Notes under the pieces: model-generated
The model's database searches: none
Seen by the model: only the letters and a program-made list of their open reading frames with translations
Told to the model about the DNA's origin: nothing
Shown here: positions 3,929-33,844 of the stretch, piece by piece
Layout of the letters: every line of letters starts with the position of its first letter
Position numbering within the stretch: position 1 is the first letter of the stretch
Position numbers and translations under genes: made by a program
IMG/VR virus record: IMGVR_UViG_3300043177_000122
Coordinates: 160,001 to 224,000 of that record
Length of the DNA stretch: 64,000 nt
Direction: 5' to 3' (one strand)
DNA from: a virus
Taxonomy: Duplodnaviria; Caudoviricetes

Positions 3929-4303
3929 ATGAAAGACCATAATAGAAAAGGTAAGAGGTTCTCTAAAAAGGCACCGAGGGGAGGTGAATCGCAGCCAGTC
4001 GCAGTCAACGACAAATTCGCACATATTGAAGCAGTGCAAGCCCAACCCCTCGAAGTTAAAGTGTATGGGAACAATTTCGATAAAGCTTTGAGAGCTTTTC
4101 GAGCCCTCGTTCAAAAAGAACGTATTCTCTCGTCATATAAAGAGAAGCAATCGTACGAGAAGCCATCTGACAAACGTAGGAGAAAGCGTAACGAATCCAA
4201 AAGGAAACAACTTGAACTTTGTAGCAAAGGTGACTGTAGACACTCAGGCCATGCTAAAAACCGCAAGGAAAGAAAGTTCAAGAGAGGCTCTTCTCCAGAA
4301 TAA
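3929..4303 (+). CDS. rpsU: ribosomal protein bS21 homolog with N- and C-terminal extensions
   Basis: Core LEVKVYGNNFDKALRAFRALVQKERIL...KQSYEKPSDKRRRKR matches the bS21 pattern (V-x-V...ALRxF...YEKPS..R). Confidence 0.85.
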   Translation: MKDHNRKGKRFSKKAPRGGESQPVAVNDKFAHIEAVQAQPLEVKVYGNNFDKALRAFRALVQKERILSSYKEKQSYEKPSDKRRRKRNESKRKQLELCSKGDCRHSGHAKNRKERKFKRGSSPE

Positions 4304-4315
4304 TCTGGAAACAAC

Positions 4316-5032
4316 ATGTCTGATACTGACGGTAAAATTAAACTAATCAAAAACCCTGATAGAAATAAACCTACGGCATATAAACCATATGTGCCGCAGT
4401 ATCAGGTACATGGTAAAGAACCTCAAGAATATCAAGGCGGTGCAGTGGCGCCTGGTCATCAAATGACTAGGCCCACTTCTCTGCCAAGTGATAATCCAAG
4501 ATCTAAAAGAGTGCCACTTCGTCAACCATATGCTGAGGTAGCTCCCTCACCTATTGGAAGGGGGCCGGTTCCAAATGTAGGAAATAATATGGAACATACA
4601 TGGTCTAGTGTAGATGGTGAAATTATTGATGATTTATCCAATCCGGAGTTTGACCCTAATCAACAAATGATTGATAATAATGATTTCGTGACTGAAACAG
4701 CTTTAGGATATCAAAGTGGACCAACAGCGGCAGATATTTTTCCACACTATCAAGCCTACGCTCCACAAGCTATTGAGCAGGAAATTGAAGCTATCCATCA
4801 GCCGGCCGATCCAGATGATTTGCTGCCCGTTCTAACCAGTTTAGATGATGAGTCTTATTTGTTAATTGTAGCTGGGGTGCCAGTTTGTTCTGGTCCTAAG
4901 ACCGAAATTGAAGACCAAGCTAGAGCTTTAGTATTTGGTGAGCACGAATTAAGCGACGGAAATCCTGTGCCAATTGATGATATAATTATTCTTAAGAGAG
5001 TCAAGGTAAAAGTTGGTTTATTCTTAGAATAA
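4316..5032 (+). CDS. hypothetical Pro/acidic-rich protein
   Basis: 238-aa ORF, tightly spaced in operon. Confidence 0.75.
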   Translation: MSDTDGKIKLIKNPDRNKPTAYKPYVPQYQVHGKEPQEYQGGAVAPGHQMTRPTSLPSDNPRSKRVPLRQPYAEVAPSPIGRGPVPNVGNNMEHTWSSVDGEIIDDLSNPEFDPNQQMIDNNDFVTETALGYQSGPTAADIFPHYQAYAPQAIEQEIEAIHQPADPDDLLPVLTSLDDESYLLIVAGVPVCSGPKTEIEDQARALVFGEHELSDGNPVPIDDIIILKRVKVKVGLFLE

Positions 5033-5039
5033 AGGTATC

Positions 5040-5855
5040 ATGGGACAAGAACCAAGAAAAGCTACTGATGTATTATTAGATTTAGAATCTAAAGTAGGTA
5101 TGTTATTAGACATCATACGTGCTCAAGATTTAAACATCAAAGTATTATCTAATAAATTAAATGATGTAATTGGGCGCTTAGATAAACAGCAAGCTGGTCC
5201 ACCTAAGATTGTTGTAGAAGCAATGCAGACTCCTGTACGGCAGGCATCTGTTGTTCCACCAGGGTTTACTCAAATTCCGGCTGGCGATCCAGAGAAGAAT
5301 ATTCCAATAGCTGCCGAATCTAAACTAATACAAACGGAAATGCCAAATGGCTTCCGCCGTAGTTCACGACCAGAAACTTATGCTGGTGATAATGTCTATT
5401 TACCTCATCCCGAAAATGAAATGAAGTTGCCAGTGCAGCTTCCAAAGCAAACACCTCGTCAACAAGCAATGACTCCGCCTCCTGGTCGCTCTGAAGCTAT
5501 AGTACCGCCCGAAGCAACTAAGAATACAAAAATAGCTCCTCCGCCAGCGCCCGATGAACCTTTACCTCAAGTTTCAACTGGTCAAATTCCAGTTCAACAA
5601 CGCTGTGTTGACAAGAATGGCAAATCTATTTTCTTGGCTCCCGTTGAAATTGTAGATGCAACAACTGGATTGCCAGTTTTTAAAACAAGAACAAATGGAA
5701 CTGGTAAATGGATGGCTGCACTTGGTATAGGTGTGTATCGAGTAACGATCACCAAGCAAGCTAATATAAGTAAAGAAAAGCTTGAAGCGGTACAAAACAT
5801 TCAAGTGGATGGCACCCAATCACCACTCGAATTACCGATGATCATCATCAAGTGA
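5040..5855 (+). CDS. hypothetical protein: N-terminal coiled coil, Pro-rich linker, C-terminal beta-sandwich (carboxypeptidase-regulatory-like)
   Basis: 271-aa ORF; C-terminal KTRTNGTGKW...GVYRVTITK pattern. Confidence 0.65.
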   Translation: MGQEPRKATDVLLDLESKVGMLLDIIRAQDLNIKVLSNKLNDVIGRLDKQQAGPPKIVVEAMQTPVRQASVVPPGFTQIPAGDPEKNIPIAAESKLIQTEMPNGFRRSSRPETYAGDNVYLPHPENEMKLPVQLPKQTPRQQAMTPPPGRSEAIVPPEATKNTKIAPPPAPDEPLPQVSTGQIPVQQRCVDKNGKSIFLAPVEIVDATTGLPVFKTRTNGTGKWMAALGIGVYRVTITKQANISKEKLEAVQNIQVDGTQSPLELPMIIIK

Positions 5856-5863
5856 GTGCAACA

Positions 5864-6094
5864 ATGTCTGTAAAAATTTCTACTGAAAGGGCTGAGCAAT
5901 TATTCTAAGCTGAACTAAAAATGAAGCTTATGAAATCTTTGCTTGAAGCAATGGACTCCGGCACATGGTCTATGTCAGAAAATAGACCAGATTTAGATAT
6001 TCATACTGGACATATTGGTGATACAGATATTGAGATTACGTTTAATCATCCAGAATTTGGAGAGATAAAAATTAGCGGTAAGAATTTCGTTTAA
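5864..6094 (+). pseudogene. 77-codon reading frame broken by one in-frame TAA (5906-5908)
   Basis: MSVKISTERAEQLF*AELKMKLMKSLLEAMDSG...GKNFV* fills the gap exactly in one frame. Confidence 0.55.
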
Positions 6095-6124
6095 CCCACC
6101 TTGGCATAATTTGCCGTGTAGGGT

Positions 6125-6658
6125 ATGCCAGATTACAAAAATTATAACGAAGATCGCACCAAGAAGCTTTGTTTTGCTTGTAAAGATATGCTTGACATCG
6201 AATTGTTTCGAATGAAAGAAAAGAAACGGGGTCGAGGTAAAGGTAAATATCGAAACAGTGTTTGCAAGAAATGCGAACAACGACAAGTCGAAGAATATAG
6301 AACAACTGATATTGGTATAGCAGCCGAGATTGCTCGTCGACATAAGCATGTTTGTAAAGTTGATTCATTACCATATGATTTGGATAAATATTGGATTTTA
6401 GAAAAACTTAACTCGATAAGTTGGAAATGTGAGCTAACAGGGCTGCCCTTTAACTTAAAAAGAAATATCAATGACAAACGACAGGGGTTTCAGTGGGACT
6501 CTGTGTCAGTTGATAGATTAAATCCTAAAGGCGGCTACACCAAAGATAACATAAGGTTCGTTATAAATCAGGTTAATGTCTTTAGGCAAAACCACCCTGA
6601 CGAACAGATGTATATGGTGGCTAAGGCACTGTTAGATTACAGGAGCAAAAGTGAGTAA
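6125..6658 (+). CDS. HNH-like (phage homing-endonuclease-type) protein
   Basis: N-terminal CxxC pairs; CELTG...SVSVDRLNPKGGYTKDNIRFV...N matches the SxDRI...GYxxxN motif of phage HNH-fold nucleases. Confidence 0.7.
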   Translation: MPDYKNYNEDRTKKLCFACKDMLDIELFRMKEKKRGRGKGKYRNSVCKKCEQRQVEEYRTTDIGIAAEIARRHKHVCKVDSLPYDLDKYWILEKLNSISWKCELTGLPFNLKRNINDKRQGFQWDSVSVDRLNPKGGYTKDNIRFVINQVNVFRQNHPDEQMYMVAKALLDYRSKSE

Positions 6659-7352
6659 GAAAAAATTCAGTGTGATTGTTGCCGATTGTCCATGGCCTTT
6701 CAAAGATTCTTTAAAAATGTCCGATGTCAAGCGTGGTGCCCAGGCTAACTACGACACCATGACAATGCAACAAATTCGTGAGATGCCCGTAACTGAGGCT
6801 TGCGATCCAGATGGGGCAGTCTTATGTTTATGGGTGCCCGGCTCATTGCTTCAGGATGGTCTCGACACTATGAAAGCGTGGGGGTTTGACCACAAACAAA
6901 CTTATGTATGGGTCAAAATCAAGAAGCACAGATTTCAGAGATTTACCAAGTGGATAAAGAAAAGTGTACTAAGACACCCACAAATTGCCTATGAGAGATT
7001 TGCTTGTGTAAGGGCAATTAATGCCATCATAGATAATTTACCTAATGTAAATTTTAATGAAGAATTAGCATTTGGAATGGGGCATTTATTTAGACAGACC
7101 CACGAGATTTGTTTAATTGGTACACGCGGGAAAATACTTAAGCAATTAGCTAACAAGTCACAGCGCTCTGTAAGCTTTGCTGAAAATTTGAGGCATTCGG
7201 CCAAACCGGATGACTTACAAGAATCTTTGGAAACTATGTTTCCAAAAGCTCGGAAACTAGAATTGTTCGCCAGAAGACTCCGACCTGGTTGGACTTGTCT
7301 AGGGAACGAGATTGATGGTAAGGACATATATGATGCTCTTGCCGAACTATAA
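6651..7352 (+). CDS. MT-A70 family adenine methyltransferase
   Basis: FSVIVADCPW (DPPW-type motif IV), LCLWV, WGF...TYVWVK, GMGHLFRQTHEICLIGTRG, HSAKP, LELFARR..PGW...GNE. Confidence 0.88.
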   Translation: MSKKKFSVIVADCPWPFKDSLKMSDVKRGAQANYDTMTMQQIREMPVTEACDPDGAVLCLWVPGSLLQDGLDTMKAWGFDHKQTYVWVKIKKHRFQRFTKWIKKSVLRHPQIAYERFACVRAINAIIDNLPNVNFNEELAFGMGHLFRQTHEICLIGTRGKILKQLANKSQRSVSFAENLRHSAKPDDLQESLETMFPKARKLELFARRLRPGWTCLGNEIDGKDIYDALAEL

Positions 7353-7367
7353 ACGGAGAATAGAACA

Positions 7368-7877
7368 ATGCCGAAGAAAACGCTATTATTGAATGCTAGT
7401 TATGAGGTGCTTTCTTTTATTCCAGAAAGGAAAGTTTTCAAGTTACTTTTCAAAGACAAGGTTGAAGTCGTCTCTAACTGGGATGAATTCATTACTTGGG
7501 GCAATGGAAAGATTAAGCACCCTTCTATCTTGAGATTGAAGACTCACGTAAAACGAAATTATTTCAACTCAAACTTCAGTCGTAAAGCTTTAGTTAAAAG
7601 AGATAGAAGCACTTGTCAGTACTGCGGTAAGAAGCTTACAGCTTCTCAAATTACAATCGACCACGTATTACCTAGAGCACAAGGCGGCATTACTTCCTTC
7701 GTGAACTGTGTAGTTTCATGCCAGATTTGTAACAATGCGAAGGCTGACAAAACGCCTGAACAAGTAAATATGAAGCTTCTTAAGAAGCCAACTCACCCAT
7801 CTTTCTCTGCACATTACTATGTCGCAGATCCTCAGGAATACTGGCATAAGGATTGGGATGACTTTTTGCGAGGCTAA
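7368..7877 (+). CDS. HNH endonuclease (McrA-like)
   Basis: LLLNASYEVL start, RDRSTCQYCG, TIDHVLPRAQGG...NCVVSCQICNNAK. Confidence 0.92.
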   Translation: MPKKTLLLNASYEVLSFIPERKVFKLLFKDKVEVVSNWDEFITWGNGKIKHPSILRLKTHVKRNYFNSNFSRKALVKRDRSTCQYCGKKLTASQITIDHVLPRAQGGITSFVNCVVSCQICNNAKADKTPEQVNMKLLKKPTHPSFSAHYYVADPQEYWHKDWDDFLRG

Positions 7878-7892
7878 AATCTGAGTTCCGTA

Positions 7893-7922
7893 AATGGGGA
7901 TAATCAAAATATTATCCCCATT
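7893..7922 (+). terminator. perfect 12-bp hairpin after the HNH gene (terminator or operator)
   Basis: AATGGGGATAAT-caaaat-ATTATCCCCATT; only a short T tract follows. Confidence 0.55.
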
Positions 7923-7978
7923 CTTCGGCCAATAATATGGAATACCTATATACTTTTCCATGATATATAGGAAGCACC

Positions 7979-8233
7979 ATGACCCAGGTAACATCTTGCA
8001 ACTGCATTGTTTGTGCAAAAGAATTTGATCCAGACGAGCTACAGAGCGTAGCTTTGTCTAAAATCAATGTTACTCGTTTCAAGATTTGCCAATCTTGTTT
8101 GGGTCATTGTGATCCTGCTGAAGATTATCGCCAAGCTCGCGAAATTATTAGTTCTTATTTGTGGTTTGCTGAGGCTAAAGGTTTATTCAAAGAAGCCTCT
8201 GATATCTTAGAGGATATTTCTAAGAAGAAATAA
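7979..8233 (+). CDS. small Cys-rich (putative zinc-binding) protein
   Basis: CNCIVC and CQSC pairs; GGAAG upstream. Confidence 0.7.
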   Translation: MTQVTSCNCIVCAKEFDPDELQSVALSKINVTRFKICQSCLGHCDPAEDYRQAREIISSYLWFAEAKGLFKEASDILEDISKKK

Positions 8234-8235
8234 TA

Positions 8236-8388
8236 TCACAATTCAATGATGATAACTCGTGGAGATTCTTCTTTATCATCTTTTTCTTGGCGTACTGGCG
8301 GCGGCTCTAATTCAACATAGAGGGGTTGTAGCTCTTCATCGTTCTTCTTTTTTTCGATTTTGTGGATAAAAGGGAAGAATGCGTCCAT
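8236..8388 (-). CDS. small hypothetical protein
   Basis: MDAFFPFIHK...RVIIIEL; GAGGT upstream of the ATG at 8388. Confidence 0.6.
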   Translation of the reverse strand: MDAFFPFIHKIEKKKNDEELQPLYVELEPPPVRQEKDDKEESPRVIIIEL

Positions 8389-8425
8389 AGTAACCTCTAG
8401 TCTGTGTATATGACGGAATATTAGT

Positions 8426-8626
8426 ATGATGTGCTCATCCTGCTCCAAGCTAGCTTTACTGTATGTTAGTAATAAGCAATGTATGCGTTGTCAAGGCGCA
8501 GTCGTTGTCAATATGGCTGTAATTTGTGAAGTTTGTTCCGCTACTGATAAAATTTGTACCGTTTGTTTGAAAAAACTAACTCCATTACAACCTAAACCTG
8601 GCGGTTGTAACTGTGGTAAAAAATGA
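8426..8626 (+). CDS. small Cys-rich zinc-finger-like protein
   Basis: Four CxxC pairs plus CNC in 66 aa. Confidence 0.65.
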   Translation: MMCSSCSKLALLYVSNKQCMRCQGAVVVNMAVICEVCSATDKICTVCLKKLTPLQPKPGGCNCGKK

Positions 8627-8654
8627 TTACGATCCTTGGGGACATAGGTAAAGC

Positions 8655-9182
8655 ATGATAATCACAAATAATGAAGCTGCGCTACGTGTATTTTGCGAAC
8701 CTGTTACCATGGAAGAGGTGGGTTCACTAATAGAAACTTTAGAAAAAGAGCTAGACTATGCTAATCGTTTAGGAAAAAATGGTATTGGTTTAGCTGCTCC
8801 ACAGATAGGTATCGCTAAAGATATTGCTATTGTACGATTACCAAAGATGAATTTCAATCTAGTAAATGCTAAATTGGTTCAAGGATATGACCCTGCTGTT
8901 TTTACAGATGAAGGGTGTTTGTCTTTTCCGGGTCGATTAGAGACTACTACGAGATTTCAAGAAGTACACATTACTAACAATTTGACTGAGCCACATAGTT
9001 TTATTGCTACTGGATTTGTAGCTGTTGTATGTCAACATGAATTAGATCATTTGAATTCAACTTTGTTTATGGATCGTAGTATTCCAAAACCAGTTCCAAT
9101 TGTAAATAAGGTTAAAATTGGGCCAAACCAACCATGCATTTGTGGTTCTGGTAAGAAATATAAGAAATGTTGTGGCAGATGA
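8655..9182 (+). CDS. def: peptide deformylase with C-terminal SEC-C motif
   Basis: GIGLAAPQIG, EGCLS, QHELDH motifs; C-terminal KIGPNQPCICGSGKKYKKCC. Confidence 0.95.
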   Translation: MIITNNEAALRVFCEPVTMEEVGSLIETLEKELDYANRLGKNGIGLAAPQIGIAKDIAIVRLPKMNFNLVNAKLVQGYDPAVFTDEGCLSFPGRLETTTRFQEVHITNNLTEPHSFIATGFVAVVCQHELDHLNSTLFMDRSIPKPVPIVNKVKIGPNQPCICGSGKKYKKCCGR

Positions 9183-9364
9183 AGTGTCCAAAATGCAACA
9201 GTTCAGATACCAAAAAAGTTTATGTTAGTGATCCTGAATGGCATATAGGTCATCAACGCTGCCAAAATCCACTTTGCAAATATCAGGGCGATTGGTTAGA
9301 ATTCTGTGACCTTCCTATTGTGTTTAAACAGGTTATAATAGATATAGGAGATAACAATGACTGA
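9179..9364 (+). CDS. small zinc-ribbon protein
   Basis: MKCPKC...CQNPLC; ATGA overlap with def. Confidence 0.6.
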   Translation: MKCPKCNSSDTKKVYVSDPEWHIGHQRCQNPLCKYQGDWLEFCDLPIVFKQVIIDIGDNND

Positions 9365-9620
9365 CAAAAAAGATGACAGAATAGAATTAAATACTGATAT
9401 TTTAGTGGCTGATGTGATGCTGAGAATAACTGCTTTAGAAAAACTTTTAATTGAAAAGGGAGTTTTTACGCAAGCAGAACTATCTGCTATAACTGATGAA
9501 ATAGCTAAAAAAGTAGCCAAAGTAGTTTTGGAAAAAGCAAAAGTTTCTAAAAATATAGAAGAATTCGTTGCGACACTAGAAAAGTCTGATAGTTCAGATA
9601 AGAAAGATTTTGATAATTAA
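9357..9620 (+). CDS. hypothetical helical protein
   Basis: 87-aa ORF, GGAG RBS. Confidence 0.75.
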   Translation: MTDKKDDRIELNTDILVADVMLRITALEKLLIEKGVFTQAELSAITDEIAKKVAKVVLEKAKVSKNIEEFVATLEKSDSSDKKDFDN

Positions 9621-9928
9621 TGCAATTCATCACTCAAGAAGAAGAAATACAAATAGACTTACCATTACAAGCTTTATATTTTTATGCTTCTTGGATGCCG
9701 TATCATCATAAGTTTATCACTATGATTTCTAAAATAGAAGAAAAGCACAAGAATATAGCATTCTTTGCTATTGATGTAGAGTCTTTTCCTAATCAGTGTA
9801 AAAGATTTTCTGTTGAATCTATACCTGAAGTTATTATTCTTAAAGGCGGTAAAGAGGTGAAAAGGATTAGCGGGCTTACTCTTACCAGCGCTTTTAGAAG
9901 TGCTTTTGCTGATATATGTACTTCTTGA
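9620..9928 (+). CDS. thioredoxin-fold protein lacking the CxxC motif
   Basis: YFYASWMPYH in place of WCxxC, AIDVE, FSVESIP cis-Pro motif, GGKEVKRISG. Confidence 0.8.
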   Translation: MQFITQEEEIQIDLPLQALYFYASWMPYHHKFITMISKIEEKHKNIAFFAIDVESFPNQCKRFSVESIPEVIILKGGKEVKRISGLTLTSAFRSAFADICTS

Positions 9929-9948
9929 ACCTTTAAATGGAGAAAGTT

Positions 9949-10359
9949 ATGCCAAAGAAAACCAGCAAGAAATCTAGTAAGAAAACCAAGGTTACTAAGC
10001 CTGCCAAAAAGACAGTAAAAACCAAGAAGGTAGATAAGCCGGTGGCACCTCCACAAACTGCTAACCCCCCAGTTCCTCAGGTATTGCCGCCAGTTGCTGT
10101 CAAGACGGAAGCAGAAAAGATTTGGGATGAAATTAAGAATCGTCCTATTGAAATGTTTGGTCTGCCAGATCAGTATGTATTTCAACACGCCACCTTTGTG
10201 CCTGTTGAACCAAATACGCTGTATGTAACTATTCGCTCTACTGCAACTCTCCCTTCACTGGAGGCTGCAATTGCCCCTCATTTTACTGTTGAGTTAGCTG
10301 ATAAGTTTGTGCTTATCAAGCGAGTTTCTAAACCATTAATTCCTTTCAAGAAGAGATAA
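9949..10359 (+). CDS. hypothetical protein with Lys-rich N-terminus
   Basis: MPKKTSKKSSKKTKVTKPAKK...; GGAG RBS. Confidence 0.75.
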   Translation: MPKKTSKKSSKKTKVTKPAKKTVKTKKVDKPVAPPQTANPPVPQVLPPVAVKTEAEKIWDEIKNRPIEMFGLPDQYVFQHATFVPVEPNTLYVTIRSTATLPSLEAAIAPHFTVELADKFVLIKRVSKPLIPFKKR

Positions 10360-10362
10360 TAT

Positions 10363-10893: not shown

Positions 10894-11080
10894 ATTGACC
10901 ATGACACCCAAAGAGCTACTTTTATCTTTAATTTCTGAAGAAAAAGAGCGCTTCGGTCAATATTCTCAATTATGTGCCATATACCAAGTACCGCCCGATC
11001 CAATAGCAATAGCGAGACACCAGGGGAAACTGGAAGTGTTGCAGCGGCTTTTGCAGGAAAAGATTATTATCAAGAGTTGA
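10886..11080 (+). CDS. small hypothetical protein
   Basis: MNKLTMTPKELLL...; AGGT upstream; overlaps neighbours. Confidence 0.55.
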   Translation: MNKLTMTPKELLLSLISEEKERFGQYSQLCAIYQVPPDPIAIARHQGKLEVLQRLLQEKIIIKS

Positions 11081-11589
11081 TTAGTAGGGCCAATACAGTA
11101 CCCATTACAAAGTTATTTCGTCATTATGGCATCCGCCTGGATGAACATAATAAGAAAACAGCTTGTCCATTCAAATCGCATGCGGGTGGCCGTGAGCGTT
11201 CACCTTCATTCTGGTATTATCCTCATACAAATACGTTCCACTGTTTTGGTTGCCACAAAGGTCCATCTTGTTGTGACTTTGTAGTAGAGATGGAACAATG
11301 TACGAAGGTACAAGCAGCTCAAAAGATACTACATCTATTTGAATCAGATGTAGATGAGGATAATATGTACAACATGCAGGATTTTGATGAGCGTCTCAAA
11401 ATAATGATGGACTTTTCAAACACTGTACGTGAGTTTTATCAGACTTATTCGACCGAAAAAGCGGGGGTATATGTTGAGCAAGCGTGTAAAAAATTCGACA
11501 CGCTGAACCTAAAGAAAAAGCTTAATAATGAGGCGTTAAGCCGAACTGTTGAGAAACTGAAGGAATACATAAACCTATATAAACCATGA
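10972..11589 (+). CDS. stand-alone CHC2 zinc-finger (DnaG zinc-binding domain) protein; start may be TTG at 11077
   Basis: CPFKSH...ERSPSF...FHCFGC...DFVVEME; no Toprim domain. Confidence 0.88.
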   Translation: MCHIPSTARSNSNSETPGETGSVAAAFAGKDYYQELISRANTVPITKLFRHYGIRLDEHNKKTACPFKSHAGGRERSPSFWYYPHTNTFHCFGCHKGPSCCDFVVEMEQCTKVQAAQKILHLFESDVDEDNMYNMQDFDERLKIMMDFSNTVREFYQTYSTEKAGVYVEQACKKFDTLNLKKKLNNEALSRTVEKLKEYINLYKP

Positions 11590-19003: not shown

Positions 19004-20254
19004 ATGCAAATTGAAGTAACTGAATTAGAACCATGCAGATTGTCTGTTCACTATGAAGCTAACTTCCTGGAAATCTCTGATAAGAGAGCAGAAGTAGAAA
19101 ATGCTTTTAAGAAAGCCCCAGTGCCCGGATTTAGGCCAGGTAAGCCTGTACCACCAGACGCTATTAGGGTGTATTATCGTCAACAAATTGATGATTCTCT
19201 AAAGCGAGCTTTGGCAGAAGATGCATTTCACAATACTCTTTTCGAAAAGAAGATTAGACCACATGGCGCCCCTCGTTTCAATAATTTACTATTAGATGGT
19301 GGTAAGTTTACTTGTGATTTTGAAATTTTGACAAAACCAGATTTTGAAATTCCTGATTGGAAAAATATGGAAGTTGTAAAACCACATGGTGAAGTAGAGG
19401 CGTCTGTACTTGCCGAAAAGATGATGCAGGAGTTGCGTGTCCGTTTAGGTGAAGTATCTCCTTATGGCGATACGGACTTTGTTCAATCTGGCGATAATGT
19501 TCTCATCGATTACAAAGGTAGTGTAGACGGTGAAGTTGTAGAAAGCTTAGTTGCTGAAGGCGAAATGATTACCGTAGGTAATAGTCCATTAGCAGCATTT
19601 GATAACAACTTATTGGGCATGTCACTAGATGAGACTCGTGAATTTGATTTTATTGCTCCTGCTCAAGGGCTTCCTTCTTTAGCAGGAAAGACCATTCATT
19701 TCGTAGTTACTGTAAAGATGGGAACTAAAACTGTACCATGTGCTCTTGATGATGAAATGGCTAAGAAGATGGGTAAAACTACCTTTGCTGAATTGCAAGA
19801 AACTGTTGCTCAGGCTGCCTTTGCACGTTCAGCCAGTATGAAGAAACTAGCAATTCAAGAGGCTGTGGCCAGAAAGCTTGTTGATAGTGTTGATATTAAA
19901 GTTCCAAACTGGATGTCTTTGTCTGAGGCTCAATATTTGAGCCACCAATCACAAGTAGATTGGAATACTATGCCAGATGTAGACCGAGAGAAGATGATTG
20001 AAATGGCCGAGCAAAATGTTAAGCTATCTCTAATTTTAGATAAGATTAGAGAGGCTGAGCCAGAAGCACAGCTAACTGATCAAGAGGTGTTTGAAATCAT
20101 CAAGCAAAATTTGGCTAATACCAAAGTAACTCAAAGCTTAGATGAAGTTATTCAACAGATGAACAAGACTGGTTATTTGCAAATCTTGTTCTCACGTATT
20201 AAAGATGAAAATACTATGGACTTCATAGTGAAGTCAATAAAATTGATTGATTAA
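19004..20254 (+). CDS. tig: trigger factor
   Basis: VPGFRPGK ribosome-binding signature, GDNVLIDYKG FKBP-like domain, helical C-terminal domain; 416 aa. Confidence 0.9.
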   Translation: MQIEVTELEPCRLSVHYEANFLEISDKRAEVENAFKKAPVPGFRPGKPVPPDAIRVYYRQQIDDSLKRALAEDAFHNTLFEKKIRPHGAPRFNNLLLDGGKFTCDFEILTKPDFEIPDWKNMEVVKPHGEVEASVLAEKMMQELRVRLGEVSPYGDTDFVQSGDNVLIDYKGSVDGEVVESLVAEGEMITVGNSPLAAFDNNLLGMSLDETREFDFIAPAQGLPSLAGKTIHFVVTVKMGTKTVPCALDDEMAKKMGKTTFAELQETVAQAAFARSASMKKLAIQEAVARKLVDSVDIKVPNWMSLSEAQYLSHQSQVDWNTMPDVDREKMIEMAEQNVKLSLILDKIREAEPEAQLTDQEVFEIIKQNLANTKVTQSLDEVIQQMNKTGYLQILFSRIKDENTMDFIVKSIKLID

Positions 20255-20590: not shown

Positions 20591-20868
20591 TGAAAGTCGA
20601 AAGGTTCCTTATTCAAGCATGCTGTAACAAGAAGCAAATAGTTTTTAAACTAGATAGGCCAATTGATAATAGCTTACTTGAAGTTCTGAAAAGTAATGGG
20701 TATACAGAAGCTGCCCACTTTACTAAAGCAGGAATGCTATATGCCGATAATCTGGACTTAATAGTGACGGGTCCATTTGGTGGCGATAAGCTAAATGCTA
20801 AGTGTAAAAGAGCAGACTGTGACCAAATCCTCAATGATCTTGAGGCGTTGCTTGTCAGAACGGAGTGA
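20590..20868 (+). CDS. hypothetical protein
   Basis: 92-aa ORF, TAATG coupling. Confidence 0.7.
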   Translation: MKVERFLIQACCNKKQIVFKLDRPIDNSLLEVLKSNGYTEAAHFTKAGMLYADNLDLIVTGPFGGDKLNAKCKRADCDQILNDLEALLVRTE

Positions 20869-20870
20869 GG

Positions 20871-21536
20871 ATGGCAAAGGGTAAAGGTTCTATCACTGAA
20901 GTCAGAAAGAAAGTTACCAAAACCCACGAATTTATTTCAACTTCCTATCATGAGGCAGGACATGCTGTTATTGCATTGTTATACCTTATGAAAGTTAGTT
21001 CCGTGTCTGTTTTTGAAAATAAGCAATTTAAAAGAATTCACGGTATTTGTTATTATGATTATCCTAGTGATTTTGATGAAATTCAAGACCCTGAATTATT
21101 GAATACTCTAGTTAGAGCAGAAATTGGTATTAGTTATGCTGGTTTAATTGCTGAAACTTCTTTATTTAGAAGTATTTCAGGGTCTAAACAAACTCCAACT
21201 TTTATCAGTTATGGTTCTGCAGATGATAACAAATCAGCCCGAGAGGTGATTAAAAAGTATAACCTGGCACCTCCAGGGCCTAAAAGAACAGCTTATAAAA
21301 GAAAATTAATGGCTGAAGTGCAAAATGAACTTCATGAACATTGGGACGCAGTGATGGCAATAGCTCATGCTCTTTTCCGTCATCGTCGATTGTCTTTTGT
21401 TGATTTACAAGAATTGCTGACTAAGAAGACTCGTAACAAAAAATTCTGGAAAGATCAATTCAAGAAGATTAGTTATTTTTACGATAATAGTCAGAACCTT
21501 GACGAAAAAGATTTGAAATCTATATTGTCAAGGTAA
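20871..21536 (+). CDS. stand-alone M41 (FtsH-type) zinc peptidase domain
   Basis: SYHEAGH, YAGLIAE (GGxxAE equivalent), GSADD (GAxND equivalent), MAIAHAL; no AAA or TM segment. Confidence 0.78.
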   Translation: MAKGKGSITEVRKKVTKTHEFISTSYHEAGHAVIALLYLMKVSSVSVFENKQFKRIHGICYYDYPSDFDEIQDPELLNTLVRAEIGISYAGLIAETSLFRSISGSKQTPTFISYGSADDNKSAREVIKKYNLAPPGPKRTAYKRKLMAEVQNELHEHWDAVMAIAHALFRHRRLSFVDLQELLTKKTRNKKFWKDQFKKISYFYDNSQNLDEKDLKSILSR

Positions 21537-26938: not shown

Positions 26939-27233
26939 TTTAAGTGAATTAGCTGCGGAAAAGAAAGTTAAGGTAAAAGAAGCTATCCCAGAATTTCACG
27001 CAGAAATGAAAAGAAAACTAACTAAAGCTACAGAACTAACCAACCTAATGATTGCAAATGGTCTTTGTCAACCGGATAATAAATCTCGTAGAGACCAAAT
27101 TAAGTCAATGATAAATTGGACTGATAACAATTTTGAAGCTCTAGAAAGAGTTATCAAAAAAAAATACGCTCCCACGAAAGATGCAGTAGTTGAGAATAAA
27201 TTTAAAGGCTCTTTTAGAAGAGTTCGGAAATAA
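26931..27233 (+). CDS. coding frame without a convincing own start; likely C-terminal part of the 26216 gene
   Basis: GRNLSELAAEKK...GSFRRVRK*; first in-frame ATG after the upstream stop is at about 27007 without a clear RBS. Confidence 0.6.
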   Translation, partial: GRNLSELAAEKKVKVKEAIPEFHAEMKRKLTKATELTNLMIANGLCQPDNKSRRDQIKSMINWTDNNFEALERVIKKKYAPTKDAVVENKFKGSFRRVRK

Positions 27234-27240
27234 GGTATAA

Positions 27241-27702
27241 ATGCCAATTAGACGTGTTCAACAACAATCAGATAGTGGAAGTATCCAAAACCTACAAAAT
27301 AGGAACGAGGAAGAACTTCCTCCAACCGATTATGAGCTTCGAGTGAAAGAGCTTTATGAACATGCATTGGTAACTAGAAATCAAGCCCTAGTTGACTCCC
27401 TGAGTTTGATTCCACTTAATGGGGCTGCCAATGATCCGGTTTCTATTTTTTTTAGACACAGAGAATATGTTAAATCACTTAGCGCCTCGCTAGCTGAAAA
27501 AATTCGGCAGGCAGCTAAAGAAATTGCAAGCTGCTTACATGTGGATGAATCTTCTTTACCACAAGAAATAAAATGGTCTAGATATAAGCAATCTCATTAT
27601 CTTACAGCTATTACTGAAGATATTGATATAGTTAAAGTAGCAAGTGCTGATGGCCAAACTTATACGAGGACAAAAAGAAGTTTTAGAAGGGTAATCGAAT
27701 GA
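27241..27702 (+). CDS. hypothetical protein
   Basis: 153-aa ORF, AAGG RBS. Confidence 0.75.
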   Translation: MPIRRVQQQSDSGSIQNLQNRNEEELPPTDYELRVKELYEHALVTRNQALVDSLSLIPLNGAANDPVSIFFRHREYVKSLSASLAEKIRQAAKEIASCLHVDESSLPQEIKWSRYKQSHYLTAITEDIDIVKVASADGQTYTRTKRSFRRVIE

Positions 27703-28511
27703 AGTGCGTATCCTGTGAAATAGAAATTAATCCAAAATGGAAATATGCTATTGATATGAATGTGTGTCCCTTTTGTGGCAAACATATTATGGAAGAGCAT
27801 CTTAAGAACTGTCTAACTACTTTGGCTGCTGCTATGGAAGCGATGCTTAAGTACCCTGAACAGTTAGATGATTGGCTGCTATCTAATCATAACTATATTA
27901 AAACAGACTCTCCCGATCTAAAACAATATCTTCCAAAAGAAGCTTTCGAAGAAATACGCAAAGAACTTGATGAAGCAGAATTTCAAGAGAAGAAAAAGTC
28001 TGTTGTTAAGATTAAGGTTCCGACAGAAGATGGTGATGTTATTGAACAAGAAGTTGTTGTTGAAAAGATGGCAACCGATGATAGAACTCAAACTTTCCAC
28101 GATCGCGCAAACAATATGTTGAAGCAAGAGAAAGCTGTGAATGGTGACCCTAAAAGTGTCGCCGCAAAAACTAGGGATCTTAAAGCAATGGCAGAAAAAA
28201 TCAAGCGAGAAGCTGCAATTCAAGCGAAAGCCGAAGGTGGTATGGCACCTATGATGAGCAAGGAAATGATCGCTTCTGGTGATATAGTGTCTTCGAGCTT
28301 GCCACCAGCTTCCGATGGTGATGACGATGAAATTTCAGATGTTGTTTTAGCAATGAATAATATGAAAAAATTTGGAGGGGTTGGTGGTGCGAACGAAAAA
28401 GATTTGCATGCCCTAGCTAAGATGCAGGCAAAAGCTCAAGGCGCTTTCAAACGATTGGGTTCTGGTCAAGGAAGTTTTTCAAGAGTAAACCATGGCAATC
28501 AGAGTCGTTGA
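27699..28511 (+). CDS. hypothetical protein with N-terminal zinc ribbon
   Basis: MKCVSC...CPFCG; ATGA overlap. Confidence 0.78.
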   Translation: MKCVSCEIEINPKWKYAIDMNVCPFCGKHIMEEHLKNCLTTLAAAMEAMLKYPEQLDDWLLSNHNYIKTDSPDLKQYLPKEAFEEIRKELDEAEFQEKKKSVVKIKVPTEDGDVIEQEVVVEKMATDDRTQTFHDRANNMLKQEKAVNGDPKSVAAKTRDLKAMAEKIKREAAIQAKAEGGMAPMMSKEMIASGDIVSSSLPPASDGDDDEISDVVLAMNNMKKFGGVGGANEKDLHALAKMQAKAQGAFKRLGSGQGSFSRVNHGNQSR

Positions 28512-28779
28512 CAATAAGAAACTGGAAATGACAGATGATGAATGGGATATGTACCAAAAGATTTGTAAGTCTTATACAGATGTAACTGGTAAAGGCGAAG
28601 ATCTTTTTATGGATTTGTTTGAGACTAATGATGAAGGTATTATTATTTTTTTAAAACCTCCCGCTAAGAGAAGAACTAGTTTAGAAGTATTCTTATTTTT
28701 GATGTCATTAATGCAACACCAACATTTACGTTTAATGTATCAACAGATTGATGACGCCATTAAAGAAATCAAGAAGTAA
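28492..28779 (+). CDS. hypothetical protein
   Basis: 95-aa ORF. Confidence 0.75.
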   Translation: MAIRVVDNKKLEMTDDEWDMYQKICKSYTDVTGKGEDLFMDLFETNDEGIIIFLKPPAKRRTSLEVFLFLMSLMQHQHLRLMYQQIDDAIKEIKK

Positions 28780-28780
28780 A

Positions 28781-29035
28781 ATGGGACATTATTCCGAAAA
28801 GATAAGCAATAAAGATAAGCAATTTGTCAAAGATTTCATAATGGATAAAATATCTCATAAAATAGATGAGGCTTTAGCTAATTTAGAAAGTGCTTATGAT
28901 TACAACCATTTTTGTAATGAAATATGGATTGATAGTTTTCATGGTAGTTTTAAGCTACATTTTACGCCGGCCAATGAGATGAATGATGGGCAGAATTATT
29001 ATTTATCATTTGATTATTTTGGTCGTGGCAAATAA
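28781..29035 (+). CDS. hypothetical protein
   Basis: ATG 1 nt after the upstream stop. Confidence 0.65.
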   Translation: MGHYSEKISNKDKQFVKDFIMDKISHKIDEALANLESAYDYNHFCNEIWIDSFHGSFKLHFTPANEMNDGQNYYLSFDYFGRGK

Positions 29036-29088
29036 TTATTTGTCGAGAAAAAGTTCGGTTAATTCAATTATATAGGGGAAAGACAAAC

Positions 29089-29595
29089 ATGAGCCAACAA
29101 GTAAGACTCGGCGATGTTTTAGGTGCTAACCTTGAGGAAGACTTTAAGAATTTTGACCTTACGGAAATACAAAGTGTATTGGAACAATTAAGGGATGTAG
29201 ATGCTATTGATTTAGCACATGCAGAACTTTTACAACAAAAATCATTAAGAGGAGCAGATATTTTAGCAGATTATCTAGCTAAGATGGTAAAGACAGTAGC
29301 ATATCTAGAATCGAAAGTAAATAGTACAAAGAATAAAGTGTCCTTAGAATATGCGTCTCCTGATGGAGCGCGAACGACCGTGGACATGAAGAAATGGGCG
29401 GGAGAATCATCGCCCGAAGTCGAAGCAATACTAGTAAAATTAGCAGAAGCCAAAGGTGCTAAAATGGCCCTGGACCGAAAATACGAGATTTTGATCAAAG
29501 CTCACCACCATTTTAAAGACATTGCTGGCGGGCTCCGAAAGACGATCCTCGGTTATAGTTCAGGCACCGGCAACCCGCCAGGCGAGGGCTATTGA
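29089..29595 (+). CDS. coiled-coil protein, possibly UvsY-like recombination mediator
   Basis: All-helical 168 aa directly upstream of recA; function inferred from position and size only. Confidence 0.45.
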   Translation: MSQQVRLGDVLGANLEEDFKNFDLTEIQSVLEQLRDVDAIDLAHAELLQQKSLRGADILADYLAKMVKTVAYLESKVNSTKNKVSLEYASPDGARTTVDMKKWAGESSPEVEAILVKLAEAKGAKMALDRKYEILIKAHHHFKDIAGGLRKTILGYSSGTGNPPGEGY

Positions 29596-29606
29596 TAGGA
29601 GAAAAA

Positions 29607-30803
29607 ATGTCAGATGATAAAAAAAAGAAAGCCGATAAGCTAACCGCATTTTTCCGAAGCTTTGCAGAAGCAGACGCTCAGTTAGATGTTAGACTCGCCC
29701 ATGAAACTATTGGAGAAAAACTTCCTGTTATTTCATCTGGCTCTATGGTTCTTGACGATGCTTTGTCATCCGGTGGTTTACCAAAAGGCAGATTGATTCA
29801 GTATTATGGCGCCCCCGGCAGTGGCAAAACCCTAATGGCAATGCTGGCTATGAAAGAAGCGCAACTACAAGACCCAACATCTCAACAGATGTTCATTGAT
29901 GCAGAAGGCACATTCGATGCTAAGTGGGCAGAGATTCTTGGACTAGATGTCACTAGAATTATTGTTGTAGATGGTGAAACGGCCGTTATTGGTCGTAGCT
30001 GTTTTGAGATGATTCTTGGGGTTCCTAAGGAAGATAAAAAGACTCATGAGCTAGTCGGCAAATCTAAGCAAGGACTACTCGATATGATTATGGCGGGAGA
30101 ATTCAATATCAACATGGTTGTGTTGGATTCACTCGGCGCCATTATTCCACCAGGCGAAGATGTTTCGGTTGTTGGAAAGATGAATATGGCTTTACTTGCC
30201 AGATTCTTAACTACTACTTTCCGTAAGCTTTCTCTTGATGCAAATAGGGCAATGGTGCCATTTATTTTCATCAACCATAAGAAAGCCAATATGGATCCTT
30301 ATGGTGTAGACCACTCGTTTTCTGGCGGAAATACTTACGCTCACTTCTTGAGTGCTAACGTTTACTTTGAAGCGGTAGCTCGTGCAGATGCGCAAATCTT
30401 GGATGAAAAAGAGCAAAAGGTCGGACATACGATGCGTGCAACCATTGAAAAATCGAAGTTTGGCCCTTACCCTCGTAAGTGTGAATTCAAAGTAAACTTC
30501 GGAGTCGGCGTTATAGATAAGCATGAAGAAATTGCACAGCTAGCTTTAGATTACAACGTGGTCGTTAAGACCTCCACAGTATCTCATGAATATGGTGATA
30601 AGAAGTGGGTTGGATTTCCAAAGTTCTGTGAAGCTCTTAAAGATGATCCAGCTCTTGCGACTGAACTAGCTTTGAAGATTAGCCAGGCGCGTGAGCAAAA
30701 GTGGGAAACAGCTCGTAAGGAACAAGAGGCCAAGAAAAATGGCGTTACTGCTGATGAAGCTGGTATAGAAACAGAAGCAAAGAAGGGCAAGAAAGGTAAG
30801 TAA
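29607..30803 (+). CDS. recA: RecA/UvsX recombinase
   Basis: ISSGSMVLDDALSSGGLPKGR, GAPGSGKT, FIDAE, VVLDSLGA, IFINH, GG; GGAG RBS. Confidence 0.93.
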   Translation: MSDDKKKKADKLTAFFRSFAEADAQLDVRLAHETIGEKLPVISSGSMVLDDALSSGGLPKGRLIQYYGAPGSGKTLMAMLAMKEAQLQDPTSQQMFIDAEGTFDAKWAEILGLDVTRIIVVDGETAVIGRSCFEMILGVPKEDKKTHELVGKSKQGLLDMIMAGEFNINMVVLDSLGAIIPPGEDVSVVGKMNMALLARFLTTTFRKLSLDANRAMVPFIFINHKKANMDPYGVDHSFSGGNTYAHFLSANVYFEAVARADAQILDEKEQKVGHTMRATIEKSKFGPYPRKCEFKVNFGVGVIDKHEEIAQLALDYNVVVKTSTVSHEYGDKKWVGFPKFCEALKDDPALATELALKISQAREQKWETARKEQEAKKNGVTADEAGIETEAKKGKKGK

Positions 30804-30805
30804 TT

Positions 30806-31156
30806 ATGCCAATTGAGTTGGGTCCAAATAGTCTTTTAGGCGCTCAAGCTGCCTCCCTCAAGAAACCACCATTTTTAATTACATTAGAAGATGGTCTTTC
30901 TGGGAAGACTCGTAATTTTCAGAGATTTATTTCTTTGGATAAGCCTGAATCAATTAACGGTTTTGTCCAAGTCAAGGGAATTTTCTGTGATAAGGACGAA
31001 GAGGAAATAATCAAAACCTTTGCGGACATCTTGACAAATACTTCCAAAGAATTAATTTTGGAGATGATGTTTCCGCTACATAGAATTCATAGCATTAGAA
31101 GCTTAGTATTCAATGCTGTAAAGACTGTGACAGTTCCTAATAAAGAACAGAAGTAA
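30806..31156 (+). CDS. hypothetical protein
   Basis: 116-aa ORF. Confidence 0.72.
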   Translation: MPIELGPNSLLGAQAASLKKPPFLITLEDGLSGKTRNFQRFISLDKPESINGFVQVKGIFCDKDEEEIIKTFADILTNTSKELILEMMFPLHRIHSIRSLVFNAVKTVTVPNKEQK

Positions 31157-31174
31157 GATATTACGAATAGGAAA

Positions 31175-31465
31175 GTGAGTAATACAATGGTTAACGCGAA
31201 TGAAACAAATGAGGTGATTTTTCGTGGGGTCACCTCAGTAATAGAACAATCTGGAGGCATTTGGAAAGGAACGATGACAAATTTGACTACTGCTTTGAAC
31301 CGTGTTCTTAGTCAACGTCAGAGGACTCTTCTTCCTGGTTCACCAGGCGCCCTCAGAGTGGTGATTAACAGAATAGCTAATAGGCTACGTAATAGAGGTA
31401 TTGGAGTAAGATTTGGCCGTACCACTGACCACACCCGCACTCGCTACGTACGATTTACACACTAA
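31175..31465 (+). CDS. basic winged-helix-like protein
   Basis: WKGTMTNL...PGSPGALRVVINRIANRLRNRGIGVRFGR; resembles C-terminal wHTH of primase/helicase-type replication proteins (from memory). Confidence 0.55.
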   Translation: MSNTMVNANETNEVIFRGVTSVIEQSGGIWKGTMTNLTTALNRVLSQRQRTLLPGSPGALRVVINRIANRLRNRGIGVRFGRTTDHTRTRYVRFTH

Positions 31466-31549
31466 TGTGATAGAAAATACGATCGATTGTTTTTGTTAAG
31501 TAGATAAACGTACTATAAGTACAAAATAGAATAACATTTGGAGATCAAA

Positions 31550-32269
31550 ATGAGTACATTCGGTGAAGTATCTTGGAATGATGATGTGTTCCCAGGCGAT
31601 AACAAGAAGCAAACAAACAGCAAAGACCTCTTTCTTCGTTTAGATGAGGGCCCGAACGAAATCCGTATTCTGACCCAACCATACCAGTACTTGGTTCATA
31701 AGTACAAGAAAGAAGGTGACAACGGTTTCGGACAGAAAGTTCAGTGTTCTGCAATTCATGGAAGCTGCCCTCTCTGTGCGGATGGCGACAAGGCTAAGCC
31801 GCGTTGGTTACTAGGAGTTATTAGTCGTAAGACTGGTACCTACAAGATTTTGGACATCTCTTTTGCTGTGTTTTCACAGATTAGAAAATATAACAAAAAT
31901 CCAAGATTTGGTGATCCAACTAAGTATGACATCAACATTGAAGTTGATAAGAACGGCGGTGCCACTGGATACTACAGTGTTCAAGCCTTGCCAAAGGAAC
32001 CACTATCAGCCGCTGACCAAGTAATTAAGGACAGCATTGACTTTGATGACCTGAAGCGCAGAGTCACTCCACCTACTCCTGAAAAAGTTCAGGCTAGATT
32101 GGACAAAATCAATGGTGTAACGACCAGCGGTGCACCTGCAACTTCTGCTCCGGCTCCTGCCGCTGTAAAGAAGAGCACCAAGGCTGCCGCTCCAGCCGTC
32201 AGCATGACTGATGATGAAGAACTAGACAAAACTTTCCCTGACTATGAAGGTGAAGACGCCCAGTCCTAA
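31550..32269 (+). CDS. single-stranded DNA-binding protein (T4 gp32-like)
   Basis: LRLDEG.NEIRIL, C...CPLC zinc site, GDP..YDINI, acidic tail DYEGEDAQS; between recA and resolvase. Confidence 0.75.
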   Translation: MSTFGEVSWNDDVFPGDNKKQTNSKDLFLRLDEGPNEIRILTQPYQYLVHKYKKEGDNGFGQKVQCSAIHGSCPLCADGDKAKPRWLLGVISRKTGTYKILDISFAVFSQIRKYNKNPRFGDPTKYDINIEVDKNGGATGYYSVQALPKEPLSAADQVIKDSIDFDDLKRRVTPPTPEKVQARLDKINGVTTSGAPATSAPAPAAVKKSTKAAAPAVSMTDDEELDKTFPDYEGEDAQS

Positions 32270-32291
32270 ATCTATCACTCCCTAGATAGTT

Positions 32292-32330
32292 GAAAGACCC
32301 ATAACCAATTTGGTTATGGGTCTTTCTGTT
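32292..32330 (+). terminator. intrinsic terminator after SSB
   Basis: Perfect 16-bp stem GAAAGACCCATAACCA-att-TGGTTATGGGTCTTTC followed by TGTTTT. Confidence 0.85.
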
Positions 32331-32351
32331 TTATTGGATATATTACCAAGT

Positions 32352-32924
32352 ATGGCTAAAACTATACTTGGCTTTGACGCCTCTTCTACTACTATTGGTT
32401 ATTCTATATTAAGTTGGGATGAAACAACAAATAATATTTCTTTTGTAAAAGCTGGATATATCAAGCCCAAAAAGAAAGGTTCTATTATCGAAAGGATAGT
32501 AGATACCAGAAATCAAGTTCAAAGGGTCATCGTAGCTGCTCAGCCAGATTATATCTCTATTGAAGAGATAATTCAGTTTATGAAAGGTAAGAGTACTGCT
32601 AAGACTATTATCATGTTAACTACTTTTAATAGGATGATTTGTCTAACTGCTTATGATTATCTTGGTAAGGAACCTACTCTTTATAGTGTTATGACAATTC
32701 GTCATGGGCTAAAGACGGGTAAAGATTTACCAAAAAAAGAAGAAATGCCGGCCCTTGTCGCCCAACATTTAGGAATTACGTTTCCCTATGAGTATAATAA
32801 GAAGGGCAGTATTAAGGTCGAAAGCTACGATAAAGCTGACGGCATTGCAGTTGGCCTGTATCATACGCTTGCTTTAGCGGGCAAGGTAAAGACTAAAGGA
32901 AAGCCTAAGGGTAAGAAAAAATGA
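32352..32924 (+). CDS. RuvC-like Holliday junction resolvase
   Basis: ILGFDASSTTIGYS, YISIEE, DKADGIAVG acidic triad pattern. Confidence 0.8.
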   Translation: MAKTILGFDASSTTIGYSILSWDETTNNISFVKAGYIKPKKKGSIIERIVDTRNQVQRVIVAAQPDYISIEEIIQFMKGKSTAKTIIMLTTFNRMICLTAYDYLGKEPTLYSVMTIRHGLKTGKDLPKKEEMPALVAQHLGITFPYEYNKKGSIKVESYDKADGIAVGLYHTLALAGKVKTKGKPKGKKK

Positions 32925-33844
32925 AGCGTGCAGAAGCCTATTCAATCCTAGAAATATCAGAAGCCTCTTCGGTGGAGGACGCCAAAAAAGCGTTTCGTCA
33001 ACTTTCTAAAAAGTATCACCCAGATAATAAAGATACCGGCTCTGAAGAAAAATTTAAGAAGATTAATGAAGCTTATCAGTCTATTTCCAATAATAAGTTC
33101 GATGATACTCCACAACGCCAAAATGGTTTTGGTGGGTTTCATCGCCAACAAGTTGTTCATTTAGAGAATGTAGAAACAAATATTACTATTTCTTTTAAGG
33201 AGTCTGTTTTGGGCTGCAAGAAAGAACTTCAGTTTGATCGTCAAACCAAATGTCGTAACTGTAATGGACAGGGAGAAGTTAGGATAAACAACGGCTGTAA
33301 GAAGTGCGGTGGTCGTGGACAAGTAACTAGTCGACAGGGTAATATGATTGTTATGTCGACCTGTGATGAGTGCTATGGCCGCTCTAATGTAGAAGGATGT
33401 AATATTTGTAGTGGTTATGGTACCGTTCAGGCACGCGCATCTGTACACGTGACTGTGCCTGCGGGCACTACTAATGGTAGTACATTACGATTACCTGGTA
33501 TGGGGAATTTTGCAGGCTCTTTTATGGGGTTGGCAGATCAGCATACTGATGTATTTTTGCATGTTACTGTCACTCCAGACAGTGATTTAACGTTAAATGG
33601 TCAACATGTAATAAGTTATCTCACTATTTCGTTATTAGATGCTTTACAAGGATGCAGTCGTAAAGTAAAAACTATTCATGGAGAAAAAGAAATACAAGTT
33701 AAACCACAGTCCCGTAATCGTGATGAGGTAATTATACCCCATCATGGAGTAGCTAACGCAGGTGATCAAAAGGTCATTTTAGATGTTGAATATCCAAAGA
33801 ACACTGATAAATTGATTGGCGTTCTTCTAGATGAGGTAATATAA
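32921..33844 (+). CDS. dnaJ: DnaJ chaperone (type A, short G/F region)
   Basis: J-domain KYHPD, four CxxCxGxG-type repeats, C-terminal beta domain. Confidence 0.93.
   Translation: MKRAEAYSILEISEASSVEDAKKAFRQLSKKYHPDNKDTGSEEKFKKINEAYQSISNNKFDDTPQRQNGFGGFHRQQVVHLENVETNITISFKESVLGCKKELQFDRQTKCRNCNGQGEVRINNGCKKCGGRGQVTSRQGNMIVMSTCDECYGRSNVEGCNICSGYGTVQARASVHVTVPAGTTNGSTLRLPGMGNFAGSFMGLADQHTDVFLHVTVTPDSDLTLNGQHVISYLTISLLDALQGCSRKVKTIHGEKEIQVKPQSRNRDEVIIPHHGVANAGDQKVILDVEYPKNTDKLIGVLLDEVI

Follow-up and report, generated by a model that had tools for sequence, protein, structure and literature searches.

Within a 64,000-nucleotide stretch of the viral record IMGVR_UViG_3300043177_000122 (Duplodnaviria; Caudoviricetes; positions 160,001 to 224,000), hereafter the window, we find four homologues of the bacterial machinery that acts on proteins from initiation to folding: a ribosomal protein bS21 homologue (3929..4303, 124 residues), a peptide deformylase (PDF) fused to a SEC-C tail (8655..9182, 175 residues), a trigger factor (TF; 19004..20254, 416 residues), and a class-A-like DnaJ (32921..33844, 307 residues). 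The four genes evolve under purifying selection, occur once each and in a fixed order, and are inherited together with the terminase, and we judge it somewhat probable that they belong to a vertically inherited core set which would supply extra protein-maturation capacity for a large phage proteome. All four are intact, lie on the plus strand, and are spaced 4-14 kb apart within the window. The first-pass annotation, a model's reading of the letters alone, had placed them at these positions and called them dispersed; family matches and intact motifs bear out the former, and the spacing bears out the latter.

Relatives were picked by the large terminase alone (TerL; 45945..47828, plus strand, PF05876), a clade marker independent of the four genes, so that the resulting 149 related viral contigs form a sample independent of the genes under study. 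In each of the 15 long contigs (93-481 kb, TerL 67-92% identical), bS21, DnaJ, a full-length TF, and a syntenic PDF occur exactly once each, always in the order bS21, PDF, TF, DnaJ, TerL and with similar spacing. Walking outward from the most distant terminase gave more distant relatives, of which six span the region upstream of TerL; TF, PDF, and DnaJ occur in 6/6 of these and bS21 in 5/6. In one 59-kb contig, G022, PDF, TF, and DnaJ are kept and bS21 is not detectable. None of the four genes occurs in two other contigs, but these are uninformative, since they stop less than 10 kb from TerL in that direction. Over the 21 contigs covering the region, PDF, TF, and DnaJ are thus present in all, and bS21 in 20. 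A patchy, independent distribution among relatives, which the first-pass annotation had named as counting against its reading, is therefore not what we observe; the genes are co-inherited across these 21 contigs. Against the three closest relatives, the ratio of nonsynonymous to synonymous substitution rates (dN/dS) lies between 0.02 and 0.17 for the four genes (0.05-0.09 for TF, 0.12-0.15 for bS21), with a synonymous rate that is mostly saturated. In pairwise distances, each of the four genes is correlated with TerL and with the other three (rho 0.62-0.83, Mantel p 0.0005).

The window is part of a single 358,993-bp contig with 38% GC and 57 tRNAs, 83%-complete (G000 below; G- and L-numbers are contig labels), and its source is a huge, uncultured, tRNA-rich phage. 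Among the phage genes in the window are those for a gpA-type terminase, PolIII alpha, topoisomerase I, RecA, RuvC, Mre11/Rad50-like proteins, and a split primase. The GC content is uniform along the window, which indicates that neither a host insert nor a chimera is present, and together with the conserved synteny among relatives this led us to rule out contamination. That the four genes are host-derived passengers or an assembly artefact, without phage function, is extremely improbable, even if all of them belong to host-like families and several related contigs are flagged 'provirus' in IMG/VR. Besides the even GC, the genes are interleaved with phage replication genes, they keep the same order in 21 independent contigs, their dN/dS is well under 1, and they have no close cellular homologue.

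The N-terminal part of the deformylase matches PF01327 (E 1.4e-26; 93.4 bits, above the gathering score of 22.8) and contains all of the PDF catalytic motifs, GIGLAAPQ, EGCLS, and HELDH. The tail, approximately residues 158-175, matches PF02810 (E 4.4e-9; 36.5 bits, above the cut-off of 20.4), and its zinc ligands C-x-C-x8-CC are intact and C-terminal, within the consensus GxNxPCxCGSGKKYKxC. Neither the PDF motifs nor the four tail cysteines vary among 16 clade sequences or among 26 divergent fusion proteins. The tail can be aligned at almost every residue with the metal-binding domain of SecA (1sx0, 1ozb, 1tf2) and with YchJ (9l6b). In an AlphaFold2 model built on an alignment of 26 diverse fusion proteins, a PDF core (residues 1-141, with per-residue confidence, pLDDT, above 96) is followed by a low-confidence, proline-rich linker and a small knuckle (residues 161-175). 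The C-terminal α-helix by which type 1 PDFs dock on the ribosome was sought in this model and is not there, the last helix ending at residue 141, and the alignments of the phage PDF to solved PDFs likewise end at about residue 145. As a side observation, G008, which is one of the 15 long contigs, has a second, divergent PDF at G008:345888-346289 (41.8 bits).

Judging from sequence clusters, the predicted PDF-SEC-C fusion extends beyond this clade and is frequent in viral sequences. A SEC-C-type ending is found in 125 of the 150 nearest cluster representatives at 50% identity. A dozen ESM Atlas clusters are automatically named PDF/SEC-C, and in the three best-scoring ones 95-97% of the members with taxon records are viral. 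Two divergent examples occur in phage-like contexts. Among deposited phage PDFs in INPHARED, no match to the phage PDF extends past about residue 150, and in a scan of one genome per prokaryote species the best 80 matches were PDF-only or SEC-C-only, with no fusion among them. Cellular matches that seemed to cover both parts turned out to be YchJ-like proteins, SecA, or other SEC-C proteins without PDF motifs, and were rejected.

Two earlier results bear on the tail. For E. coli SecA, the isolated metal-binding domain was found to sediment together with 70S ribosomes, and the C-terminal tail that carries this domain was found to cross-link to uL23 (Jamshad et al. 2019, PMC6620043). Known phage PDFs are without the helix that docks the E. 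coli enzyme on the ribosome, and the consequence of this was left open (PMC3660681). Taken together, they make a ribosome tether the natural reading of the SEC-C tail, and we infer by analogy that the knuckle may tether the deformylase to the ribosome, in replacement of the docking helix. The PDFs of cyanophage S-SSM7 and vibriophage Vp16 (PMC3660681; 3uwa, 5mtc) likewise consist of a minimal core with the three motifs and no C-terminal helix, whereas the PDF described here adds a linker and a SecA-type zinc knuckle where the helix would be. The SEC-C domain of SecA (1sx0, 1ozb; PMC6620043) has nearly the same 22-residue sequence and zinc ligands as the phage tail. Nevertheless, in the phage the knuckle is joined to a deformylase and not to a translocase, and the phage is without SecB.

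The trigger factor shows all three domains, Trigger_N, FKBP_C, and Trigger_C (PF05697, PF00254, and PF05698), and passes the equivalog cut-off of TIGR00115 (194.2 bits, cut-off 180.2), with an FKBP_C match that is weak (E 6.6e-5) and confined to residues 159-215. Its residues 2-367 align to the E. coli and V. cholerae proteins at low identity, and its Atlas model reaches a template-modelling (TM) score of 0.72 to bacterial TF over residues 1-416. The ribosome-docking loop reads GFRPGKPVP, with one residue more after GK than the V. cholerae GFRKGK-VP; within the clade G42, R44, and G46 are invariant, and F43 and K47 are nearly so. The Atlas neighbours of the phage protein are bacterial TF clusters from many phyla, which gives no clear donor signal, and when the clade alignment was run against prokaryote genomes, one per species, no relative sharing the conserved peptides of the clade turned up. 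A further 21 TF matches in INPHARED (23-29% identity) were not counted as TFs of cultured phages because they lie mostly in short, unannotated 'Bacteriophage sp.' contigs or in host-like multi-contig drafts.

Another gene, which together with the deformylase makes up the PDF-MAP pair of N-terminal processing and is core to the clade, lies outside the window. A type I methionine aminopeptidase (MAP) is encoded at G000:325227-326030 (= L227:428-1231); it scores 224 bits against TIGR00500 (cut-off 171.35), and its five metal ligands (D, D, H, E, E) align with those of the P. aeruginosa enzyme 4fo7. It is present in 9 of the 10 genomes tested, including all 6 that are at least 90% complete. By homology, the phage thus appears to encode counterparts of the full trio of exit-tunnel factors, PDF, MAP, and TF. 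Compared to the E. coli triad (7d80, 6j45), all three phage homologues retain their catalytic or docking motifs, whereas their genes are scattered over the genome and the PDF would use a different tether.

DnaJ matches the J domain (PF00226), the zinc-repeat domain (PF00684), and the C-terminal domain (PF01556, DnaJ_C, E 2.3e-25). The J domain has KYHPD at residues 31-35, and the zinc repeats read CRNCNGQG, CKKCGGRG, CDECYGRS, which is degenerate, and CNICSGYG; the HPD motif and the cysteines are invariant across the 16 clade sequences. The glycine/phenylalanine-rich (G/F) linker is short, about 25 residues with a single GFGGF against a class A norm of about 35, and it is gapped and variable in the clade. 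Similar full-length DnaJ genes occur in Lak phages and in phages of 630-640 kb. HSP70, GrpE, Cpn60/GroEL, and SecB were searched in this genome and in near-complete relatives, and none was found (for HSP70 and GrpE, in 5 near-complete genomes). Since the phage encodes neither DnaK nor GrpE, its DnaJ must use host DnaK. The polyomavirus T antigens are viral J-proteins that use host Hsp70, and gp31 of T4 is a viral co-chaperonin; as in these cases, the phage supplies a co-chaperone without the ATPase chaperone. Unlike the T antigens, the phage protein is not a bare J domain but a nearly full class A DnaJ with zinc and client-binding domains.

An orphan DnaJ and a SecA-like tail could also point to interference with the host, in which SEC-C would put the deformylase on the uL23 site used by SecA, the signal recognition particle (SRP), and host TF, DnaJ would titrate host DnaK, and host secretion and the heat-shock response would be shut down. 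The near identity of the tail to the SecA metal-binding domain, the uL23 cross-link and 70S co-sedimentation reported for SecA (PMC6620043), the lack of a phage DnaK or GrpE, and the virus-typical occurrence of the fusion, missing from the best cellular matches, are all consistent with it. We nevertheless regard it as very unlikely. The catalytic motifs of the PDF are invariant, which argues that the enzyme activity itself is under selection, and SEC-C motifs are also found in unrelated proteins, YchJ among them, and bind SecB as well. A related proposal is that the PDF-SEC-C at uL23 would form, with phage MAP and TF, a private platform at the exit tunnel, perhaps displacing host SecA, SRP, or TF, so that ribosomes in infected cells would be converted to the processing and folding of phage cytosolic proteins while DnaJ would capture host DnaK for those same clients; we consider this speculative and unlikely to hold.

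The bS21 homologue matches PF01165 (E 3.9e-15; 55.7 bits, cut-off 27) over profile positions 1-54 of 55 and passes the equivalog cut-off of TIGR00030 (54.4 bits, cut-off 28.95). Its core, residues 42-94, is preceded by a basic N-terminal extension of 41 residues and followed by a basic C-terminal one; in the 16-sequence alignment the core is invariant and the extensions are conserved. Directly upstream, ending 24 nt before bS21, lies a gene for an AAA+ ATPase (2600..3904, plus strand, PF00004) of the YjoB/VAT/Cdc48-like type, whose closest PDB match is B. subtilis YjoB (7w42), followed by VAT/Cdc48. It is found next to bS21 in 15/15 relatives. This ATPase may be a further proteostasis component, either an unfoldase partner of a ClpP pair or another chaperone. 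That pair, two tandem ClpP genes, is located about 5 kb before the window (G000:153948-155098) and is present in 5/5 near-complete genomes; the second ClpP match has one in-frame stop in G000, G004, and G009, and none in G008 and G011.

Initiation factors are encoded as well. A gene for IF3, passing the infC equivalog cut-off, lies 13 kb before the window (G000:146107-146748) and is found in 4 of 5 near-complete genomes, and IF1 occurs in the four complete relatives and was not found in this 83%-complete contig. With IF3, MAP, and the two ClpP, which are core genes of the clade as well, the first-pass suggestion of a set running from initiation to folding is strengthened as far as its membership goes, whereas the co-occurrence of the genes is explained by vertical descent of a syntenic block.

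The presence of an extended bS21 and of IF3 also raises the idea of ribosome reprogramming, with the two shifting start-site selection to phage mRNAs and the exit-site factors being accessory. It draws on the clade-conserved basic extensions of bS21, which resemble those of bS21 in huge phages (PMC7162821), on the encoded IF3, and on approximately 20 genes with GATATA 14-16 nt before ATG. This is nevertheless unlikely. A core resembling the Shine-Dalgarno sequence is found upstream of only about 38% of the open reading frames (ORFs), nothing sets phage signals apart from those of the host, and the class of short leaders with GATATA-N-ATG comprises only those approximately 20 genes. Moreover, IF3 and bS21-containing ribosomes discriminate against leaderless mRNAs, the opposite of the first-pass idea that the set may favour phage mRNAs, several of them with very short leaders, an idea for which we find no support. 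In addition, G022 seems to be without bS21 and yet keeps the other three genes, and PDF, MAP, TF, and DnaJ have no known part in the choice of messages.

We instead favor supplementation, in which the set would duplicate host machinery. During a long infection, as host gene expression declines, the phage would top up or replace the ribosome-associated factors of the host. In such a scheme, bS21 and IF3 would act on the 30S subunit, PDF would stay close to the exit tunnel through its SecA-like zinc knuckle, which would stand in for the usual C-terminal helix, MAP and TF would work at that same exit site, and DnaJ would pass clients to host DnaK; factors for triage further downstream would also be supplied by the phage. 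The result would be a greater capacity and robustness for making and folding the large phage proteome, and not a choice of phage messages.

Several observations weigh against this reading. The PDF scores 94.9 bits against the NCBIfam equivalog model TIGR00079, under its cut-off of 103.95, and DnaJ only 195.6 bits against TIGR02349, for which the cut-off is 377.2, so that an altered function is possible for both. The trigger factor is only about 25% identical to the studied ones, which fits specialisation as well as supplementation. Finally, the neighbours of the four genes are equally conserved, in 12-15 of the 15 relatives and mostly in 14-15; they include the AAA+ ATPase, a PD-(D/E)XK nuclease, RuvC, the Toprim half of the primase, and small ORFs. 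In a core block held rigid by shared descent, co-occurrence by itself is no proof of functional coupling.

The same features lend some weight to a role as client-specialised chaperones, in which divergence would have suited TF, DnaJ, and the AAA/ClpP proteins to the folding or quality control of certain phage products, for instance large virion proteins or replication proteins, much as T4 gp31 replaces GroES for the capsid protein. The TF, at its low identity to bacterial TFs and with clade peptides found in no cellular genome, is nonetheless under strong purifying selection, DnaJ is a shortened protein whose G/F linker is minimal and whose score falls far under its equivalog cut-off, and phage proteins of 1170-1222 residues are encoded. 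Nevertheless, TF keeps its docking loop and three-domain architecture, as would be expected of a generalist, and PDF, MAP, and IF3 are not client-specific enzymes. We consider client specialisation possible, if on the improbable side, and retain supplementation as the preferred explanation.

The arrangement of the genes gives no indication of joint expression: the four genes form no operon, and we observe no sign of co-regulation, which supplementation would not require. DnaJ is part of a separate unit whose first gene encodes a RuvC-like resolvase (32352..32924, plus strand, PF02075), and the DnaJ start overlaps the RuvC stop (ATGA); RuvC lies upstream of DnaJ in 15/15 relatives. A strong hairpin resembling an intrinsic terminator (32292..32326, plus strand, 16-bp stem with a T tail) sets this unit apart from the upstream genes. 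Directly after it, at 32337-32354, is a GATATAT-N8-ATG element, which makes the ATG at 32352 the likely true start of RuvC; genome-wide, the distance from GATATA to ATG shows a sharp peak at 15 nt (12 of 24 cases). Sites resembling sigma-70 promoters are at chance level (62 against 62.8 expected and 64 against 54.5 expected), so that no shared promoter can be claimed.

The DnaG-type primase of the window is divided between two genes 23 kb apart, one for the CHC2 zinc ribbon (10972-11589) and one for DnaG_N+Toprim (34192-34956). Genes for a small protein resembling sigma-70 region 4 (35033-35473), a member of the CCA-adding/poly(A)-polymerase family (41958-42731), and a member of the tyrosine-phosphatase family (53353-54123) are within the co-directional array. 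About 600 nt downstream of TF is a gene for a 223-residue protein (20865-21536) with weak M41/M50B metalloprotease matches only; matches to it were looked for in PDB and NCBIfam, and none was found. In four related contigs, L194, L196, L204, and L208, the terminase matches start only at query residue ~150-190, a pattern which suggests that the large-terminase gene is split or interrupted in some relatives. Outside the window, at G000:144353-144509, are two adjoining tRNAs with CUA anticodons (amber suppressors), which belong to the 57; the window genes read normally in code 11.

Parts of this set have been seen before. Huge phages with bS21 bearing N-terminal extensions, PDF, and initiation factors were described by Al-Shayeb et al. 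2020 (PMC7162821), and these phages likewise exceed 200 kb and carry dozens of tRNAs. The main text of that paper has no mention of trigger factor, DnaJ, methionine aminopeptidase, Clp, or a SEC-C tail. In its supplementary GenBank records, the genome SR-VP_4-6_scaffold_141_2630357 has S21, PDF, TF, and DnaJ in the same order, and the genomes S27_BME27_1069154 and S16_GE16_scaffold_55267 have a TF start nearly identical to that of the TF described here. There, however, the set is present only as automatic annotations, and its clade-wide conservation is not described. The freshwater phages with bS21 reported by Chen et al. 2022 (ISME Commun, PMC9723584) are likewise large, with a conserved bS21 and brief mention of chaperone and Clp genes, and neither the paper nor its supplementary text files mention a trigger factor or deformylase. 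In those phages bS21 is among late structural genes, whereas here it is in the replication block beside the AAA+ ATPase. A phrase search of the literature found no paper discussing a phage-encoded trigger factor, a PDF-SEC-C fusion, or a phage methionine aminopeptidase. Two elements appear to be undescribed: the trigger factor of a phage that encodes the full exit-tunnel triad, and the PDF-SEC-C fusion that is typical of viruses.

Phage bS21, deformylase, and initiation factors are known, and their discussion has so far turned on initiation and on sustaining host photosynthesis. The PDF-SEC-C fusion may offer a concrete answer to the question, raised in 2013, of how helix-less phage PDFs reach nascent chains (PMC3660681), and it is at the same time a natural experiment on what the zinc domain of SecA binds. 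The retention of PDF, MAP, and TF in this clade, together with a DnaJ but no DnaK, suggests that a step which limits very large phages is the maturation and folding of proteins during translation.

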